In this document: in pieces, positions 1 to 5,037 of the stretch | Position numbering within the stretch: position 1 is the first letter of the stretch | Layout of the letters: each line of letters starts with the position of its first letter | IMG/VR virus record: IMGVR_UViG_3300020576_006930 | Location: 64,001-128,000 of that record | Reading direction: 5' to 3' (one strand) | DNA from: a virus | Taxonomy: Duplodnaviria; Caudoviricetes | Length of the DNA: 64,000 bases | Translations under genes and position numbers: made by a program | Notes under the pieces: model-generated | Told to the model about the DNA's origin: nothing | What the model saw: only the letters and a program-made list of their open reading frames with translations | The model's database searches: none

Positions 1-59
1 CTTAGGTTCACGGCGAAAGCGAAAACATCGCTGACGCATTCATTTTATTTCCCCCCCTT

Positions 60-135
60 GGCCTGTTAGCTCAATTGGTAGAGCACGACTCTCTAAAAGT
101 TTTTGTTGCGGGTTCGAGCCCCGCACAGGCCTCCA
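60..135 (+). tRNA. tRNA-Sup (anticodon CUA, amber suppressor)
   Basis: GGCCTGT/ACAGGCC acceptor, GCTC/GAGC D-stem, anticodon loop CT-CTA-AA, GCGGG-TTCGAGC-CCCGC T-arm, discriminator T, encoded CCA; 76 nt. Confidence 0.9.
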
Positions 136-140
136 TTTTC

Positions 141-195
141 GGGCGCAATAACAATTTACTTGTTTCTCTAGGTGTGAGTCCTAGTGCGCCCACCA
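141..195 (+). ncRNA. Minimal tRNA-like RNA (acceptor stem + T-arm, no D-arm)
   Basis: GGGCGCA/TGCGCCC-A-CCA, CTAGG-TGTGAGT-CCTAG; only a short AACAA/TTGTT hairpin in between; 55 nt. Confidence 0.7.
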
Positions 196-200
196 TTTTC

Positions 201-390
201 GCGAAGGTATCCATAATGAAGGGCATGGATCCGGTTAGTAGGTTTCATACATCAAGCGCTTGGTGTTTTGAAGGAACCCCGGTGAAGTGTGCGATGGAAG
301 CAAATCCCTATTGGCTTCCCGTCGGTGACGACGAATGGAGCTACAACGCAAGTTGTAGACATGCGGGTTTAAGTCCCGCCCCGAGCACCA
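201..390 (+). ncRNA. Expanded tRNA-like RNA (Leu-like ends, extra arms)
   Basis: 3' GCGGG-TTTAAGT-CCCGC T-arm, CCCGAGC-A-CCA; 5' GCGAAGG-TA-TCCAT..ATGGA D-like arm; three additional hairpins; acceptor stem imperfect. Confidence 0.55.
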
Positions 391-395
391 ATTTT

Positions 396-594
396 GCCGG
401 TGTAGCTCAACTGGATGACGAACTGGGGTAAGAAAGAGTATGGCTTGACCCGTTTCACACCCTGCAGGAAGGTGAACGGCAATAGCCAAAAGATATTTTA
501 CTCAGTAGTAGTCAGATGTGAAAACATTAGAGAGCCAATCGTTGGAACCAATACGGTTGGTTGGTTGGAGGTTCAAATCCTCCCGCCGGCGTCA
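396..594 (+). ncRNA. tRNA-like RNA with ~113-nt D-loop insert
   Basis: GCCGGTG/CGCCGGC acceptor; D-stem GCTC(405-408)/GAGC(532-535) split by a long hairpin; GGAGG-TTCAAAT-CCTCC T-arm; anticodon loop non-canonical. Confidence 0.75.
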
Positions 595-600
595 ATTTAT

Positions 601-703
601 AACAGCGTATCGAATTGTAAAACGAAAGGCAGAGTTCGACTCTATTAGCAAGTCCTGTAGCGTGCTAACTACTTTGTGGGTTTGATTCCTACCGCTGTTA
701 CCA
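601..703 (+). ncRNA. tRNA-like RNA with enlarged D and anticodon loops
   Basis: AACAGCG/CGCTGTT-A-CCA, TCGAA/TTCGA arm, TTAGCA/TGCTAA arm with 12-nt loop, GTGGG-TTTGATT-CCTAC T-arm. Confidence 0.65.
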
Positions 704-709
704 ATTTAT

Positions 710-888
710 ACGGGGTTAGCTCAGTGGTAATGTGAAAGCAAAAATAACGATAGGGTTAGAAGCTAGACTATAATCCGAAAATAATTCGCGGGAGTAGCAT
801 TTATGTATCGTTGGATGACGGTCTTACGATCAAGAGCAACGGACTAATAATCCGTGGGTCGCTGGTTCGAATCCATCACCCCGTACCA
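710..888 (+). tRNA. tRNA-Ile(AAU) with ~104-nt D-loop insert
   Basis: ACGGGGT/ACCCCGT-A-CCA; GCTC-AGTGGTA-[730-833]-GAGC; ACGGA-CT-AAT-AA-TCCGT; TTCGAAT T-loop. Confidence 0.8.
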
Positions 889-894
889 ATTTAT

Positions 895-1045
895 GGGTAG
901 GACGATGAGCGCCGTGAGAGTCGGCAGGAAAGACGTAGTGGAAGGTGGGGATGTAGTAATGGAAGTGTACATCACCAAAATGAGATAACCATTGAGTAAC
1001 TACGTTGAGTATAAAACTTTGGTTCGAGTCCGAAGCTACCCACCA
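895..1045 (+). ncRNA. tRNA-like RNA, anticodon arm replaced by long hairpin
   Basis: GGGTAG/CTACCC-A-CCA, TTTGG-TTCGAGT-CCGAA T-arm, GCCG/CGGC hairpin, ACGTAGT..ACTACGT long stem. Confidence 0.65.
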
Positions 1046-1051
1046 ATTTAT

Positions 1052-1193
1052 GGAGTTATAGCTCAGTGAGCCAAACGAATGGGGCATGAGTAGAATGTGA
1101 GGCTAACATTTGAAAGTTCTCGGTAGGGAGGCATAGTAGAGCGTCGGATTTTAGATCCGAAGGTCGGTGGGTAAATACCACTTAGCTCCACCA
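1052..1193 (+). tRNA. tRNA with UUA (ochre) anticodon and 67-nt D-loop insert
   Basis: GGAGTTA/TAGCTCC-A-CCA; GCTC-AGTG-[1069-1135]-GTA-GAGC; TCGGA-TT-TTA-GA-TCCGA; T-loop GTAAATA deviant. Confidence 0.75.
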
Positions 1194-1199
1194 ATTTAT

Positions 1200-1275
1200 G
1201 GACAATGCTACATGGAAGATGGGTCGCGCTCAAAGCCATGTGGGTTTCGTGGTGAAAATCCACCTCTGTCCACCA
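1200..1275 (+). ncRNA. Degenerate tRNA-like RNA
   Basis: GGACA/TGTCC-A-CCA, GTGG-TGAAAAT-CCAC T-like arm, one long CTACATGG/CCATGTGG hairpin in place of D and anticodon arms. Confidence 0.5.
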
Positions 1276-1392
1276 ATTTACCTGTAAGGGAAACACCTTA
1301 TTGATAACCACTGCGATTTAACCTACACTATAATCATAGAATGAAATGATGTGGTTGAAACGACTACGGTTCATTTTTAAGAATGGAATAAT

Positions 1393-1512
1393 ATGTTAAA
1401 TATATCTACATTGGGTGCGGTTTTTCTGAGCGGCGGTTCTGGTTTATATCTAGGCGGCGGTTTGGGTTTGATACTACTAATAATAGTAATCGTTGTATTG
1501 TTTCGTAGATAA
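1393..1512 (+). CDS. Small single-pass membrane peptide (39 aa)
   Basis: Below ORF-track cutoff: MLNISTLGAVFLSGGSGLYLGGGLGLILLIIVIVVLFRR; Gly-rich then hydrophobic helix then RR. Confidence 0.6.
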   Translation: MLNISTLGAVFLSGGSGLYLGGGLGLILLIIVIVVLFRR

Positions 1513-1532
1513 TTATATACAGACACTTTCTT

Positions 1533-1676
1533 GACAACGTGGCGGAATGTAAATACGCACCTATCGATGGGTGAAGTGGGCCTAGAGGCAAGGCGAAAAG
1601 CGGTGACGCTCCGAGCCAATGTGGTGTCGAACCCGATAAGCTTCACAAATTGCAGGTTCAAATCCTGCCGTTGTCG
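1533..1676 (+). ncRNA. tRNA(Leu)-like RNA with ~90-nt insert in anticodon/variable region
   Basis: GACAACG/CGTTGTC acceptor, TGGCGGAAT..ACGC Leu-type D-arm, GCAGG-TTCAAAT-CCTGC T-arm; no encoded CCA. Confidence 0.7.
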
Positions 1677-1701
1677 TCTTCTTCAAAAAATAAATTAAGA
1701 C

Positions 1702-1730
1702 TTGACCTTTTTACAAAAATGTGAGATACT
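1702..1730 (+). promoter_or_regulatory. sigma70-type promoter
   Basis: TTGACC ... GATACT at about 17-nt spacing, upstream of the ncRNA/tRNA block. Confidence 0.5.
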
Positions 1731-1761
1731 TATCTCCAGATGGAGGTGAGGAACCTCTATT

Positions 1762-1966
1762 CGGTAAGATACGCACAGCAAAAAATAAAAAATAATACAA
1801 GCAAACAACCAAATAACCTATCAATTGGTCATTGGTAAGTTGGTCGAAAGCCAACTCTAAAAAAGTTTTCCGTGATGTAGCGAACACGTAACCTGAATGC
1901 TCGGAGTTGGTGCGTCCGTCAAAACATAACCCGGAGACAACCGTATAATCCGTATCTAGTAAACCG
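1762..1966 (+). ncRNA. Structured ncRNA of unknown class
   Basis: Terminal helix CGGT-A-AGATACG / CGTATCT..ACCG enclosing ACAGCAA and several hairpins (e.g. AGTTGGT-CGAAA-GCCAACT); no ORF. Confidence 0.5.
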
Positions 1967-2040
1967 CGAGTTTAGCTCAGTGGAAGAGCGTTTGATTTAC
2001 ACTCAAAATGTCGGGGGTTCAATCCCCTCAACTCGCACCA
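1966..2040 (+). tRNA. tRNA-Val(UAC)
   Basis: Full cloverleaf, loop TT-TAC-AC, CCA. Confidence 0.95.
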
Positions 2041-2046
2041 ATTTAT

Positions 2047-2124
2047 CACTCCGTCGCCTAGCTTGGTATGGCACTTGCTTTGGGAGCAAGCACAACGTCG
2101 GTTCAAATCCGACCGGGGTGACCA
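2047..2124 (+). tRNA. tRNA-Pro(UGG)
   Basis: Full cloverleaf, loop TT-TGG-GA, CCA. Confidence 0.95.
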
Positions 2125-2134
2125 AAATTCCAAT

Positions 2135-2209
2135 GGGGTCATCTGTATAATGGTAGTACGGCAGCTTTGCAAGCTGTAGGCCGGGGTTCGACTCCCCGTG
2201 GCTCCACCA
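2135..2209 (+). tRNA. tRNA-Ala(UGC)
   Basis: Cloverleaf, G3:U70, loop TT-TGC-AA, CCA. Confidence 0.95.
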
Positions 2210-2213
2210 ATTT

Positions 2214-2372
2214 ATGACGAAGAAGAATAGTCGTAAAATTTTAGAGTTGTTGGAAGAAATGAAAGTCTGTAATAGTTTTCGATCTGCTCGCATTGCCATT
2301 GTCATTAATCGGATGTTGCATCGTTATTACAAACCAACACCAGAACCAACAGATAGAAAACGATTTAATTAA
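2214..2372 (+). CDS. Hypothetical protein (52 aa)
   Basis: ATG..TAA frame exactly fills the gap between two tRNAs. Confidence 0.5.
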   Translation: MTKKNSRKILELLEEMKVCNSFRSARIAIVINRMLHRYYKPTPEPTDRKRFN

Positions 2373-2450
2373 GGTGCTTTAGACCAACTGGCAGGAGTCG
2401 TTGCCCTGAGAAGGCAAAATGTATCGGTTCAAATCCGTTAGGCACCACCA
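2373..2450 (+). tRNA. tRNA-Leu(GAG) with short variable loop
   Basis: GGTGCTT/AGGCACC-A-CCA, TTGCC-CT-GAG-AA-GGCAA; no long variable arm. Confidence 0.85.
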
Positions 2451-2454
2451 AAAT

Positions 2455-2637
2455 ATGCGTCGGCAAACGGTAAAAATGTCAGGTTTTGACCCTTGCGGCC
2501 AAAAGCGGTTTTTTTCTTCTAAAAATGAGGCTTGGAAAGAAGCCGAACGGCAAGCTAGAGAGAGTGCCGGAGCCGTTTTTAAAAAACCATACCGCTGCAA
2601 GTATTGTAAGGGATTTCATTTTACCTCTGTGGATTAG
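2455..2637 (+). CDS. Small Zn-binding phage protein
   Basis: C..KRFFSS..EA...PYRCKYCKGFHFTS motif; the only TAG-terminated gene seen. Confidence 0.7.
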   Translation: MRRQTVKMSGFDPCGQKRFFSSKNEAWKEAERQARESAGAVFKKPYRCKYCKGFHFTSVD

Positions 2638-2652
2638 GTCGATATTATTATA

Positions 2653-2681
2653 TTGACAAACCACCGCTGATCTGATATTAT
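2653..2681 (+). promoter_or_regulatory. sigma70 promoter for RNase P RNA
   Basis: TTGACA-N17-TATTAT. Confidence 0.8.
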
Positions 2682-2692
2682 ATAGGCTGAAA

Positions 2693-3004
2693 GTTTGTCG
2701 TAAGTGACTCTACGCTGGGGAGAAATCCTTAGAGGAAGTTCGCTGGTGAATAGCAGATATGGGAGAATCATCCTGAGCCCTTGTAAAACTCGGATAAGTT
2801 CAGCAGGAAGGGCGAAATAAAGGGGTTTTAGAATAAGCCTGTGATTCGTTTGAACCAAAAATTATCACTAATCCTAAATTGTCAAAGAGTAGTGCTACTC
2901 ATTGTAAAGACAAGGTTGGAGCAGTTACCCTTAACGGGTGACCAGTCGCAAGACTGAGATAAATGTAGGGATAAAACAGGACAGCGGCTACGGCTGCGGC
3001 AAAC
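2693..3004 (+). ncRNA. rnpB: RNase P RNA (divergent, phage-encoded)
   Basis: P1 GTTTGTCGTA/TGCGGCAAAC, P2 CTCTAC/GTAGGG, CR-I GAGGAAGTTCGCTG pairing with CR-V ACAGGACAGCGGCTA (P4), P18 CAGTC-GCAA-GACTG followed by AGATAAATG. Confidence 0.85.
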
Positions 3005-3070
3005 ATCTTGTATAGGTTTTAACAGAACCTTTAGTGACAAGCTGTCGTGAATAACTATAAATCTGTTAAT

Positions 3071-3144
3071 GGGGCTATAGTATAATGGTATCACATTTCC
3101 CTCGCACGGAAAAAATTCCGGTTCGATCCCGGATAGCTCCACCA
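3071..3144 (+). tRNA. tRNA-Ala(CGC)
   Basis: Cloverleaf, G3:U70, loop CT-CGC-AC, CCA. Confidence 0.95.
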
Positions 3145-3148
3145 ATTT

Positions 3149-3367
3149 ATGTTTATCAAAACAAAACTAACAGTGGAAGTTGAAGTCGAGACCCAATTCG
3201 GACCCGCCGATGCTGTAAATTTGATTGAAAATTTGACACGTCATGTTTCCGCTGTGAAATCGATGAAAATAGTTGGGATTAAAACTGACTATGAATATTC
3301 TGATAAGTTTCCTGATGATTTGAATTTTAAAGCGATAAATAATATCCCTTACATTATTAAGGATTGA
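3149..3367 (+). CDS. Hypothetical protein
   Basis: 72-aa ORF between tRNAs. Confidence 0.6.
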   Translation: MFIKTKLTVEVEVETQFGPADAVNLIENLTRHVSAVKSMKIVGIKTDYEYSDKFPDDLNFKAINNIPYIIKD

Positions 3368-3391
3368 CTTTTTTCTTTTATCGCCTATAAT
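3364..3391 (+). promoter_or_regulatory. sigma70 promoter
   Basis: TTGACT-N16-TATAAT upstream of the tRNA block. Confidence 0.7.
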
Positions 3392-3407
3392 TATAGGCAG
3401 TTAGTAT

Positions 3408-3495
3408 CGCGGGAACAGGCCGGAAGATGCCATCGACGCTCATAACGTCGGTCTGAAAAGACTATGGTTGGTGTAACTCCAACTCTCCGCAACCA
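3408..3495 (+). tRNA. tRNA-Met(CAU), initiator-like, with long variable arm
   Basis: CGCGGG..CCGCA-ACCA with C1:A72 mismatch, loop CT-CAT-AA, extra GGTCT-GAAA-AGACT arm, atypical D-arm and T-loop. Confidence 0.7.
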
Positions 3496-3501
3496 ATTTT
3501 T

Positions 3502-3575
3502 GGGGTCATAGTATAATGGTATTACATCAGGCTGGCAGTCTGGTCATCAGAGTTCGATTCTCTGTGGCTCCACCA
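3502..3575 (+). tRNA. tRNA-Ala(GGC)
   Basis: Cloverleaf, G3:U70, loop CT-GGC-AG, CCA. Confidence 0.95.
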
Positions 3576-3584
3576 TTTTTATAT

Positions 3585-3658
3585 TGGGGATTGTTGTAAT
3601 GGAAGCAAAGTGCTCTCTGAAAGCAAAGGCGGTGGATCGATACCACCATCCCCAGCCA
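3585..3658 (+). tRNA. tRNA-Gln(CUG)
   Basis: TGGGGAT/ATCCCCA-G-CCA, loop CT-CTG-AA. Confidence 0.9.
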
Positions 3659-3661
3659 GTT

Positions 3662-3819
3662 TGTAACGGGCACGGTAAACATTCGGCGTCGTAAAGGATA
3701 CCAGCGCCAAAAACATCGGCAATAAGTAGGTTGTTAAGTTCAACTGAAGACGGTGGCAGGTTATCTCCGGCCTAAAGCGGAGTATGAGTTGGATATATTC
3801 CAACCCGTTGTTCGTTACA
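3662..3819 (+). ncRNA. Structured multi-branch ncRNA
   Basis: Long closing stem TGTAACGGGCACGG/CCGTTGTTCGTTACA enclosing four hairpins, the last T-arm-like (GTTGGA-TATAT-TCCAAC). Confidence 0.6.
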
Positions 3820-3822
3820 TTT

Positions 3823-3910
3823 GGAAGGTTGCCAGACCGGTAATGGCTCAGCTTGGAAAGCTGATGGCTCCGTAACAGGAGAACAGGTTCAATTCCTGTA
3901 CCTTCCGCCA
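3823..3910 (+). tRNA. tRNA-Ser(GGA)
   Basis: Cloverleaf with long variable arm, G73, CCA. Confidence 0.95.
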
Positions 3911-3928
3911 ATTTGTAGTGGTAATTTT

Positions 3929-4016
3929 GGAAGGTTGGCTGAGTGGTAAAGCAATAGTTTCGAAAGCTATAGTCTCCGTAACAGGAGCGGGGGTTCGATC
4001 CCCTCACCTTCCGCCA
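3929..4016 (+). tRNA. tRNA-Ser(CGA)
   Basis: Cloverleaf with long variable arm, G73, CCA. Confidence 0.95.
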
Positions 4017-4021
4017 TTTTA

Positions 4022-4375
4022 ATGAAAAAATTACTAACCATTTCTTTTTTGATGATTATAACGTTCGTGGTTATGTCATCCAACGTCTTTGTCAATTGGG
4101 ATCACAGCGGCCTTCCTGATACCGTTTCGGGGTATAACATCTACTACGGGCCAAGTAATCATTACTATACCAATTTCGTAACCGTCGGTTATGTAACGAA
4201 TGTGGTTATTTCCAACATTCCAACCCCCGCTTATTTCTCAGGAAAAACCATTGCGCCGGATGGTTCGGAGTCGGCTTTCGGCAATGAGATTCGTTCCACT
4301 CCAATCCCAGCTAATACCTTACCCAGTATGGTTAGAGATTTTAGCATAAGCAAAGTCGCCGTAACTATTTATTGA
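4022..4375 (+). CDS. Secreted fibronectin type III domain protein
   Basis: MKK-hydrophobic signal peptide; WD..SGYNIYYG..ESAFGNE FN3 pattern. Confidence 0.8.
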   Translation: MKKLLTISFLMIITFVVMSSNVFVNWDHSGLPDTVSGYNIYYGPSNHYYTNFVTVGYVTNVVISNIPTPAYFSGKTIAPDGSESAFGNEIRSTPIPANTLPSMVRDFSISKVAVTIY

Positions 4376-4376
4376 T

Positions 4377-4733
4377 ATGAAGAAATTATTTTATGTTTTT
4401 GGTATATTGTTAATCGTGGCTGTCGCCATTGCGCAAACAGCTACTTACGATCTTTGGCTTACTTGGACGCCTAATCCGCCCCAGGAATTAGTCAGTGGTT
4501 ATCGTATTGAATATCAGAAAGCGCCTGTGGTTAATGCGTGGACATATTTTACGTGGGTACCGTCTTCAACGAACGGGATTGTAATCAAAAATCTTTCTCC
4601 GGGATATGTCTACAAATTCCGTGCCTTTGCTGTCAATGCGATAGGTGTCGGCACAAATCTTTCCAGCGTGGTTCAAATCCCAACTGAAATTCCCGGTTCC
4701 GTAATTAATTTTTCAAACAAAACCTCCCTTTAA
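4377..4733 (+). CDS. Secreted fibronectin type III domain protein
   Basis: Signal peptide; LTW..P..GYRIEY..NLSPG..YKFRAFAVNAIG. Confidence 0.85.
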   Translation: MKKLFYVFGILLIVAVAIAQTATYDLWLTWTPNPPQELVSGYRIEYQKAPVVNAWTYFTWVPSSTNGIVIKNLSPGYVYKFRAFAVNAIGVGTNLSSVVQIPTEIPGSVINFSNKTSL

Positions 4734-4749: not shown

Positions 4750-5037
4750 ATGTCTTCACCAAAAAGTTCTCTCTGTAGTTTAACGGTTGAAATTCAAAAC
4801 GAAATGGGCTTACACGCACGTCCCTCTGCGTCATTCGTCAAGGCAGCGAATGAGTTTAAGTCAGATATTTTCGTTGAAGTCGATGGGGAAAAGGTTAATG
4901 GTAAGAGCATCGTCGGACTATTAACCTTGGGCGCCGCGTGCGGAACCAAATTGACGATTTCCGCTGACGGGCCTGATGCTTTAGACGCATTAAAAAATCT
5001 TGAATCGTTAGTCAATAATAAGTTCAATGGGGTTTAA
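4750..5037 (+). CDS. ptsH: PTS phosphocarrier protein HPr
   Basis: GLHARP (His15) and VNGKSI (Ser46) motifs, 95 aa. Confidence 0.95.
   Translation: MSSPKSSLCSLTVEIQNEMGLHARPSASFVKAANEFKSDIFVEVDGEKVNGKSIVGLLTLGAACGTKLTISADGPDALDALKNLESLVNNKFNGV

Follow-up and report, generated by a model that had tools for sequence, protein, structure and literature searches.

The window analysed here is a stretch of 64,000 nucleotides, bases 64001-128000 of a 139-kb IMG/VR virus record that is estimated to be 39% complete; judged by its baseplate-wedge matches, the genome is that of an uncultured large tailed phage. One strand carries all the large open reading frames (ORFs) of the window. A dense tRNA cluster occupies bases 1-4100, in which 11 tRNAs are recognized by Rfam and nine by ARAGORN, with a CUA-anticodon suppressor among those called. 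The ends of all nine ARAGORN tRNAs lie 3 nt past those of the matching Rfam tRNAs, which fits an encoded CCA, and CCA could be directly read at six of the window's tRNAs. Embedded in this cluster, between tRNA-Leu(GAG) (2373-2450) and tRNA-Ala(CGC) (3071-3144), is an RNA gene of 312 nt on the + strand (2693-3004, from the 5′ to the 3′ strand of helix P1), of which the 139-kb record holds a single copy. RNase P RNA is the ribozyme that trims new tRNAs, and, on the strength of covariation among relatives and of matches to half-models built without the window, 2693-3004 is to be regarded as a real RNA gene whose product, hereafter mini RNase P RNA, is homologous to the catalytic domain of the type-A RNase P RNA of bacteria.

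The gene is preceded on the same strand by a sigma-70-type promoter (2653-2681), made of TTGACA (2653-2658), a 17-nt spacer and TG-TATTAT (2676-2681), which agrees with the consensus at 11 of 12 positions and is the best such site within the first 5 kb of the window. Transcription is predicted to start at about 2688-2690. The consensus promoter that the initial annotation had assigned to this RNA as its own is, thus, present in near-consensus form and with the TG; furthermore, a similar promoter (TTGAC-N16-18-TAnnnT) is found just upstream of the gene in 22 of 30 relatives. On the downstream side, a spacer of 66 nt beginning at 3005 leads to tRNA-Ala(CGC) and holds no + strand terminator-like site; the mini RNase P RNA and this tRNA are probably part of one transcript.

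The relatives were gathered by pattern searches. A scan with a CR-I-like 14-mer returned mostly chance matches and four true relatives, and two gapped patterns, one for the 5′ side and one for the 3′ side of the RNA, retrieved further ones from viral and metagenome contigs. After removal of duplicates, 30 distinct full-length relatives were available, all on viral or metagenome contigs and originating from freshwater, sediment, soil and peat samples. The 3′ pattern found no relative in 185,579 bacterial and archaeal species genomes, its two matches there (L176 and L177) being chance ones in coding DNA; one more chance match to this pattern was seen in a metagenome (L160). Searches of 50,697 GenBank phage records by blastn, both with the window RNA and with a typical relative, gave no match. 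All sequences fetched with the 3′ pattern contain the 5′ strand GAGGAAGUUCGC, and those fetched with the 5′ pattern contain, conversely, the conserved strand of the opposite side, so that the way of retrieval cannot account for the conservation. Indeed, GAGGAAGUUCGC, the AA of J5/15, the GGU and the strands of P6 are conserved although they were not imposed by the search patterns.

The structure model was drawn by eye and tested on MAFFT alignments that had not been fitted to it. With 30 sequences, 92.7% of the cells are paired versus 33-49% with slid partners, and the covariation score, 0.487 versus at most 0.114, was reached by none of 500 shuffles; with 15 sequences and the window left out, 90.7% of the cells are paired versus 34-47% with slid partners, the covariation score is 0.442 versus at most 0.11, and 46 of the 70 pairs have changes in both partners. 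P1, P2, P3, P4 with its bulged U, P5, the P6 pseudoknot, P7, P15, P16 and P17 are all supported by the relatives. The minimum-energy fold of the region is weakly better than those of shuffled sequences (z -1.41), so that the free energy is by itself uninformative.

On the 5′ side, P1 (2693-2702/2995-3004) shows changes on both sides in eight of its 10 pairs. P2 (CUCUAC/GUAGGG, 2708-2713/2965-2970) is 100% paired and occurs among the 30 relatives in three forms (CUCUAC/GUAGGG, CCUUAC/GUAAGG and CUUUAC/GUAAAG), and the 7-bp P3 (2715-2721/2726-2732), which is closed by a GAAA loop, is 98.7% paired and is expanded by 35-70 nt in four relatives. Next comes the CR-I segment (2733-2745), made of J3/4 (AGGAA) and of the P4 5′ strand GUUCGCUG with the bulged U2739; its core GAGGAAGUUCGC does not vary among the 30 relatives, and its counterpart in bacterial rnpB is GAGGAAAGUCCGGGC. 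P4 itself (GTTCGCTG/CAGCGGC around the bulged U2739, 2737-2745/2982-2989) reaches 99.6% pairing across the 30 sequences, and one of its pairs varies among the relatives between U-A, G-C and C-G. The compensated P4 claimed in the initial annotation is, therefore, recovered with the very strands named there, and P1-P5 as a whole, which had also been listed there, covary across the relatives. The strands flanking P4 read GAGGAAGUUCGC and ACAG(A/G)AC.GCGGCUA in the phage family. P5 (GUGA/UCAC, 2746-2749/2865-2868) is 100% paired, with double changes in all four pairs, and, like P2 and P6, exists in at least three compensated forms. The P6 pseudoknot joins UAGCA (2751-2755) to UGCUA (2893-2897) in loop L17, is likewise 100% paired, and takes six compensated forms, namely UAGCA/UGCUA (window), CAGCA/UGCUG, AAGCA/UGCUU, AAACA/UGUUU, CAGAA/UUCUG and AACUC/GAGUU. 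A P7-like helix is formed by AU 2757-2758 with AU 2861-2862 and by UGG 2760-2762 with CCA 2855-2857, and its outer two pairs covary (AU/AU, CU/AG, UC/GA, CC/GG and UU/AA).

The 3′ side begins with J5/15 (UAA from 2869), whose AA at 2870-2871 is invariant, and continues with P15 (2872-2874/2918-2920) and P16 (2879-2883/2909-2913), both supported by the relatives, and with P17 (2887-2889/2898-2900; L17, UAGUGCUA), which is 100% paired. Although a canonical L15 GGU had not been obvious in the initial annotation, one lies immediately before the P15 3′ strand (2914-2916); none of the 30 relatives departs from it, and it is predicted to pair with the 3′ CCA of tRNAs. Two further hairpins, a P15.1-like one with loop UUAAC (2924-2942) and a P18-like one with the GNRA loop GCAA (2943-2956), are optional and peripheral, being missing in the smallest members of the family (L142, L159, L161, L155 and L170); together with the P15 region (2872-2920), they are the P15-like, P15.1-like and P18 elements previously described for this RNA. 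The last segment (2957-2989) comprises J18/2 AGAUAAAU, which is CR-IV-like, the P2 3′ strand GUAGGG, J2/4 AUAAAACAGGA and the P4 3′ strand CAGCGGCU (CR-V), and corresponds to AGAUGAAUG...ACAGAACCCGGCUUA of bacterial rnpB. In the window copy, P15 contains a U-U mismatch, and J2/4 (ACAGGAC) deviates at G2980, a position occupied by A in 29 of the 30 relatives and in bacteria. One relative (L264) is truncated after J18/2, so that not every copy of the family need be functional.

A search with covariance models of RNase P RNA, proposed earlier as a check, did not detect the gene: the Rfam RNase P models (bacterial A and B, archaeal, nuclear and type T) gave no match to it either at their gathering thresholds or at E<=10, and the window RNA, thus, stays below the gathering threshold of RF00010 (100 bits). 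When RF00010 and RF00011 were run against the whole phage record, neither yielded a usable match; the only one of RF00010 scored 6.4 bits and was in the wrong register. A different picture was obtained with two half-models, R1 for the 5′ half and R2 for the 3′ half, which were built from 15 relatives with the window left out. R1 matches the window at 2703-2871 (63.6 bits, E 1.6e-13) and R2 at 2863-2994 (129.9 bits, E 9e-30), the two matches being adjacent and colinear.

The same half-models were used to scan, with filters off, 28 proteobacterial rnpB loci with 1.5-kb flanks. Nine of the 20 best R2 matches (E<=10) fall on the 3′ third of rnpB in the sense strand, a target that makes up 2.4% of the searched bases and for which about 0.5 matches would be expected (binomial p ~4e-10). 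The three highest-scoring matches reach 17.6, 17.6 and 16.4 bits, with a best E of 0.02; the alignment covers J5/15, P15, P16, P17, the GGU, CR-IV and CR-V, and most of the matches stop about 12 nt before the end of the RNA. R1 gave no signal on the 28 bacterial rnpB loci. In bacterial rnpB this model must bridge a specificity domain of about 200 nt. Conserved strands can also be aligned one by one between the phage family and bacterial rnpB: GAGGAA-GUUCGC with GAGGAAAGUCCGGGC in CR-I, GGAGCAA-NNCC-AAAUn-G with GGAGCAAGACCAAAUAGGG from J5/15 to P15, (A/G)GGU-NGG with GGGUAGG from L15 to the P15 3′ strand, AGAnAAAUG with AGAUGAAUG in J18/2, and ACAGAAC.GCGGCUA with ACAGAACCCGGCUUA in CR-V. Homology of the catalytic domain to cellular RNase P RNA is, on these comparisons, well supported, and the failure of the Rfam models would be due to the missing specificity domain rather than to a lack of homology. 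The proposal that the phage encodes an RNase P RNA, thus, appears sound in the light of the type-A catalytic architecture, the compensatory changes and the accompanying tRNA arrays.

With the bacterial type-A RNA (Escherichia coli M1 RNA/rnpB; RF00010) the phage RNA shares P1-P5, the P6 pseudoknot, P7 and P15-P16-P17, the GGU placed 5′ of the P15 3′ strand, a P18-like GNRA hairpin, the bulged U of P4, the CR-I, CR-IV and CR-V strands and the AA of J5/15. In both RNAs, the long-range P4 is formed by CR-I and CR-V (in the bacterial family, GAGGAAAGUCC... and ACAGAA...GGCU..), and the elements follow each other in the order P1-P2-P3...P18-P2′-J2/4-P4′-P1′, with P4 crossing P2; this order, combined with the pseudoknot between the strand after P5 and L17, is the hallmark of the type-A topology. 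The phage RNA differs from the bacterial type in being devoid of P8-P14 and of the CR-II elbow-binding elements, so that its core comes to about 205 nt as against 350-400 nt, in having 6+2 rather than 5+3 pairs around the P4 bulge, in carrying the extra P15.1-like hairpin, and in being phage-encoded, often the leader of a tRNA and undetected by RF00010.

In RNase P RNA, the specificity domain reads the elbow formed by the D- and T-loops of the tRNA. The motifs of this domain are absent from the corresponding region of the window (2756-2864), in agreement with the initial annotation; what remains there is P7, a variable hairpin and a strand of the GUUAAUACCAC type. This conserved return strand (2848-2864, GUUUGAACCAAAAAUUA; family consensus CGUUAAUACCACAAAUUA) includes the 3′ strand of P7. 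By eye only, CGUUAAUACCACAAAUUA resembles the bacterial GGUAAACCCCACC, which closes the specificity domain, and the strand at 2848-2864 looks like a remnant of it. The hairpin between P7 and the return strand has pairs that covary and contents that differ across the family, namely 12 nt in L159, 13 nt in L153 and from 60 to about 190 nt elsewhere. Three relatives (L146, L145 and L139) are near-identical RNAs except for inserts of 17, 75 and 122 nt, respectively, the insert of L125 is a 45-codon ORF with a CxxC...CxxC pattern, and the smallest members of the family measure about 205 nt. The specificity domain is, accordingly, deleted in the phage family. The ‘remodelled’ domain of the earlier description is, therefore, better described as a permissive hairpin that takes up between 12 and about 190 nt of unrelated sequence.

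In the window, the variable hairpin spans 83 nt (2765-2847), and its outer stem (GAAUCAU/GUGAUUC, 2765-2771/2841-2847) encloses a grafted module of about 70 nt (2772-2840). The module consists of stem A (2772-2775/2804-2807), a small hairpin (2792-2801) and stem B (2810-2813/2837-2840), and is made a pseudoknot by the loop-loop pairing of CCCUU (2778-2782) with AAGGG (2820-2824). A pattern for it matched 67 viral contigs and, once GC-rich chance matches had been removed, yielded 43 distinct copies, including those of the window and of L148, of which 40 are free-standing; stem A with 18 variants and stem B with about 30 covary across these copies. No Rfam family covers the module, blastn against the 50,697 GenBank phage records gave no match to it, and the window's genome record holds no second copy besides the ribozyme insert. 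The window module is 94% identical to the insert of L264 and 84-90% identical to free-standing copies, and the insert of L148 matches another free-standing subtype, so that the module would have been acquired on two separate occasions. A tRNA called by ARAGORN begins right after the module in 17 of the 40 free-standing copies, and a tRNA-like gene follows it in many of the others. R2 found no match near 54 module loci apart from L264, and no convincing one in 39 whole module-bearing records, among them four at least 90% complete (none of the four). The weak R2 matches inspected are coding sequence. On these results, the idea that the module acts as a trans-acting specificity domain for the mini RNase P RNA family was rejected. 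These comparisons show the window insert as a cassette, which would sit as cargo in a permissive loop.

Other readings of the locus need to be weighed against a ribozyme reduced to its catalytic domain. The region at about 2755-2850 could be a working, remodelled specificity domain that evolved for the tRNA-shaped neighbours with altered D- or anticodon arms. Such a reading could appeal to the insert being a conserved, well-folded module rather than junk, to the nearly constant adjacency of the free-standing module to tRNA or tRNA-like genes, which makes a tRNA-related role conceivable, and to the separate gain of the module by two mini RNase P RNA lineages, that of the window with L264 and that of L148. 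However, most relatives have at this place a hairpin of 12-20 nt or an unrelated insert in the same tRNA synteny, the near-identical RNAs L146, L145 and L139 differ in the insert alone, the module occurs in phages devoid of the mini RNase P RNA family, as none of the four near-complete records has an R2 match, and no bacterial elbow-binding T-loop motif is recognized in it, all of which makes a remodelled domain unlikely. Furthermore, since the insert is a cassette with 84-94% identical copies elsewhere, its co-adaptation to the neighbouring tRNA-like RNAs, which the initial annotation had suggested, amounts to a guess and is not supported, and a role of the insert in substrate choice is possible but unsupported.

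Loss of the specificity domain, use of the variable hairpin as a cargo site, the alteration of a nearly invariant J2/4 base in the window copy and the truncation of L264 after J18/2 would also be compatible with a look-alike that does not cleave, be it a decoy or regulator (which, for example, soaks up host RnpA or pre-tRNAs) or a scaffold displaying a cargo RNA. Yet a scaffold or a sponge would not need all the active-site elements, whereas the bulged U, the adenines of J3/4 and J5/15, the strands of J18/2 and J2/4 and the GGU are all maintained by selection in 30 diverged sequences, and this possibility is regarded as quite improbable. Even more so is the idea of a structured RNA without kinship to RNase P, or of a decaying fragment of a captured host rnpB, whose resemblance to RNase P RNA would be due to chance: the silence of Rfam and the failure of the 5′ half-model on bacterial rnpB could be taken in its favour, but agreement with RNase P extends to two pseudoknots, to five conserved strands and to the order of the helices, the R2 matches are enriched on rnpB (p ~4e-10), purifying selection and compensatory changes speak against decay, and the 3′ pattern found no member of the family in the 185,579 species genomes. 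Chance resemblance or decay is, therefore, disfavoured, and its probability is held to be very small.

A phage RNase P RNA cut down to its catalytic domain and working along the following lines is considered the likely explanation of the locus. Host RNA polymerase would transcribe the RNA from its own strong promoter, and the RNA forms, as the covariation shows, a type-A catalytic core with the P4 and P6 pseudoknots, a short P7 and the GGU loop. No match to RnpA (PF00825) was found in the 139-kb record, which covers 39% of the genome, nor was RnpA found among the seven neighbouring small ORFs, and the host protein is, therefore, assumed as the partner with which the RNA would remove the 5′ leaders of the phage's many tRNA precursors. 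The cleavage site would be found through the acceptor stem, the pairing of the 3′ CCA with the GGU at 2914-2916 and contacts of the protein with the leader; the tRNA elbow would not be measured because the specificity domain is gone. The slot left by the lost domain may serve as a permissive hairpin that collects cargo, in this case the pseudoknotted element of about 70 nt.

In deletion studies of the 1980s-90s, bacterial catalytic domains stripped of the specificity domain proved still able to cleave pre-tRNA, especially with the protein, which makes the mechanism proposed for the phage RNA plausible. According to the same kind of studies, weak unaided binding of tRNA is to be expected of a bacterial-type RNA lacking the specificity domain. 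Engineered minimal RNase P RNAs are laboratory constructs, whereas the phage RNA belongs to a natural, conserved gene family. The closest natural parallel that retains the catalytic domain alone is the type T (or type P) RNase P RNA of Pyrobaculum, in which nearly the whole specificity domain is missing (Lai et al. 2010, cited in PMC4919922) and which is the only natural form without this domain mentioned in a 2016 review on RNase P. The Pyrobaculum RNA is, however, a cellular one of the archaeal type that acts together with several archaeal proteins, while the phage RNA has the bacterial P6, P16/P17 and L15 GGU; the Rfam model of the Pyrobaculum type, RNaseP-T, does not match the window at E<=10.

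RNase P RNA is generally regarded as a ribozyme universal to cells. No viral counterpart is named in the reviews searched, nor in the literature searched as a whole, which includes that 2016 review and the paper on the Bcheck tool, and neither a database model nor any of this literature describes a phage mini RNase P RNA of this kind. A conserved phage family would mean that viruses bring along their own ribozyme for tRNA maturation together with their tRNA sets. It would also provide a natural bacterial-type RNase P without the elbow-reading domain, a condition otherwise represented by one archaeal genus and by laboratory deletions, and natural scaffolds of about 205 nt for structural and engineering work. 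At the same time, it exposes an annotation gap, in that the standard models overlook all these genes, and the variable hairpin together with the free-standing leader module points to an unexplored trade of small structured RNAs within phage tRNA clusters. A more speculative view, which we hold to be rather unlikely, is that the slot is a plug-in site, where a module otherwise found as a tRNA leader supplies the ribozyme with a new input, be it by guiding the choice of substrate, by docking it to a partner RNA or protein, or by switching it on and off. The two independent acquisitions of the module hint at some benefit and, were the plug-in reading true, this would be a natural modular RNase P.

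Around the gene, tRNAs lie on the same strand at 23 of 29 loci, and a recurring order is Leu(GAG), mini RNase P RNA, Ala(GGC) or Ala(CGC), Gln(CUG), Ser and Ser. The tRNA that follows the ribozyme begins 15-22 nt past GCGGCUA, that is 1-8 nt past P1, in 15 of 30 relatives, so that there the ribozyme would itself be the 5′ leader of that tRNA, and RNase P cleavage would then create the 3′ end of the ribozyme.

The pseudoknotted module borne by the window ribozyme (a phage mini RNase P RNA) at 2772-2840 also exists as a free-standing element on approximately 40 viral contigs, examples being L215:13514-13603, L216:3991-4081(-), L222:5859-5946(-) and L263:2445-2545. The module spans approximately 70-90 nt and consists of two covarying stems together with a CCCUU/AAGGG loop-loop pseudoknot, the strands UACCCUUGAAAAACUCG and GAAAUAAAAGGGUA..AGAAUAA being invariant across its copies. 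Free-standing copies are nearly always found in tRNA arrays, often 3-8 nt 5′ of a tRNA or tRNA-like gene; no match to the module was found among Rfam families or GenBank phages.

The same module is found in the divergent P RNA of contig L264 (4186-4480, minus strand), which ends after the joining strand J18/2. Since neither the P2 3′ strand nor J2/4 nor the P4 3′ strand is present within approximately 4.2 kb downstream, this P RNA is either a pseudogene or divided by a large insertion.

Other insertions are accommodated within the ribozyme family. In the relative at L125:11152-11524 (minus strand), the variable hairpin, which lies in the position of the specificity domain, contains a 45-codon ORF, complete from ATG to stop, with two zinc-ribbon-like CxxC pairs; this would be a protein gene nested within a loop of an RNase P RNA. 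Helix P3 is expanded by 35-70 nt in four relatives (L155, L170, L141 and L171) and is, therefore, a second permissive site of the phage ribozyme family, which recalls how P3 is enlarged in eukaryotic RNase P and MRP.

In the catalytic core of the window ribozyme, J2/4 reads ACAGGAC, whereas the 29 other relatives, like bacteria, have ACAGAAC; the altered base (2980) is a nearly invariant core position. The tRNA-Ala(CGC) that follows is preceded by a leader (3005-3070) that contains CAUCUUGUAU, a hairpin and then UAGUGACAAGCUGUC.UGAA; the same element precedes tRNA-Ala(CGC) in L153. The leader in other relatives is of another kind, likewise conserved, and has two hairpins.

On the other side, the interval between tRNA-Leu and the ribozyme promoter holds a 60-aa ORF (2455-2637, plus strand) with a C...C / CxxC pattern, which matches no Pfam family and is missing there in relatives with only approximately 125 nt between tRNA-Leu and the ribozyme. 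A CUA-anticodon (amber suppressor) tRNA (60-135, plus strand; labelled Pyl by ARAGORN) stands first in the array of tRNA-shaped RNAs (141-1676). Downstream, a fibronectin type III protein (4377-4730) adjoins a phage-encoded homologue of HPr, the sugar-transport phosphocarrier (4750-5034, plus strand; PF00381, E 1e-29).
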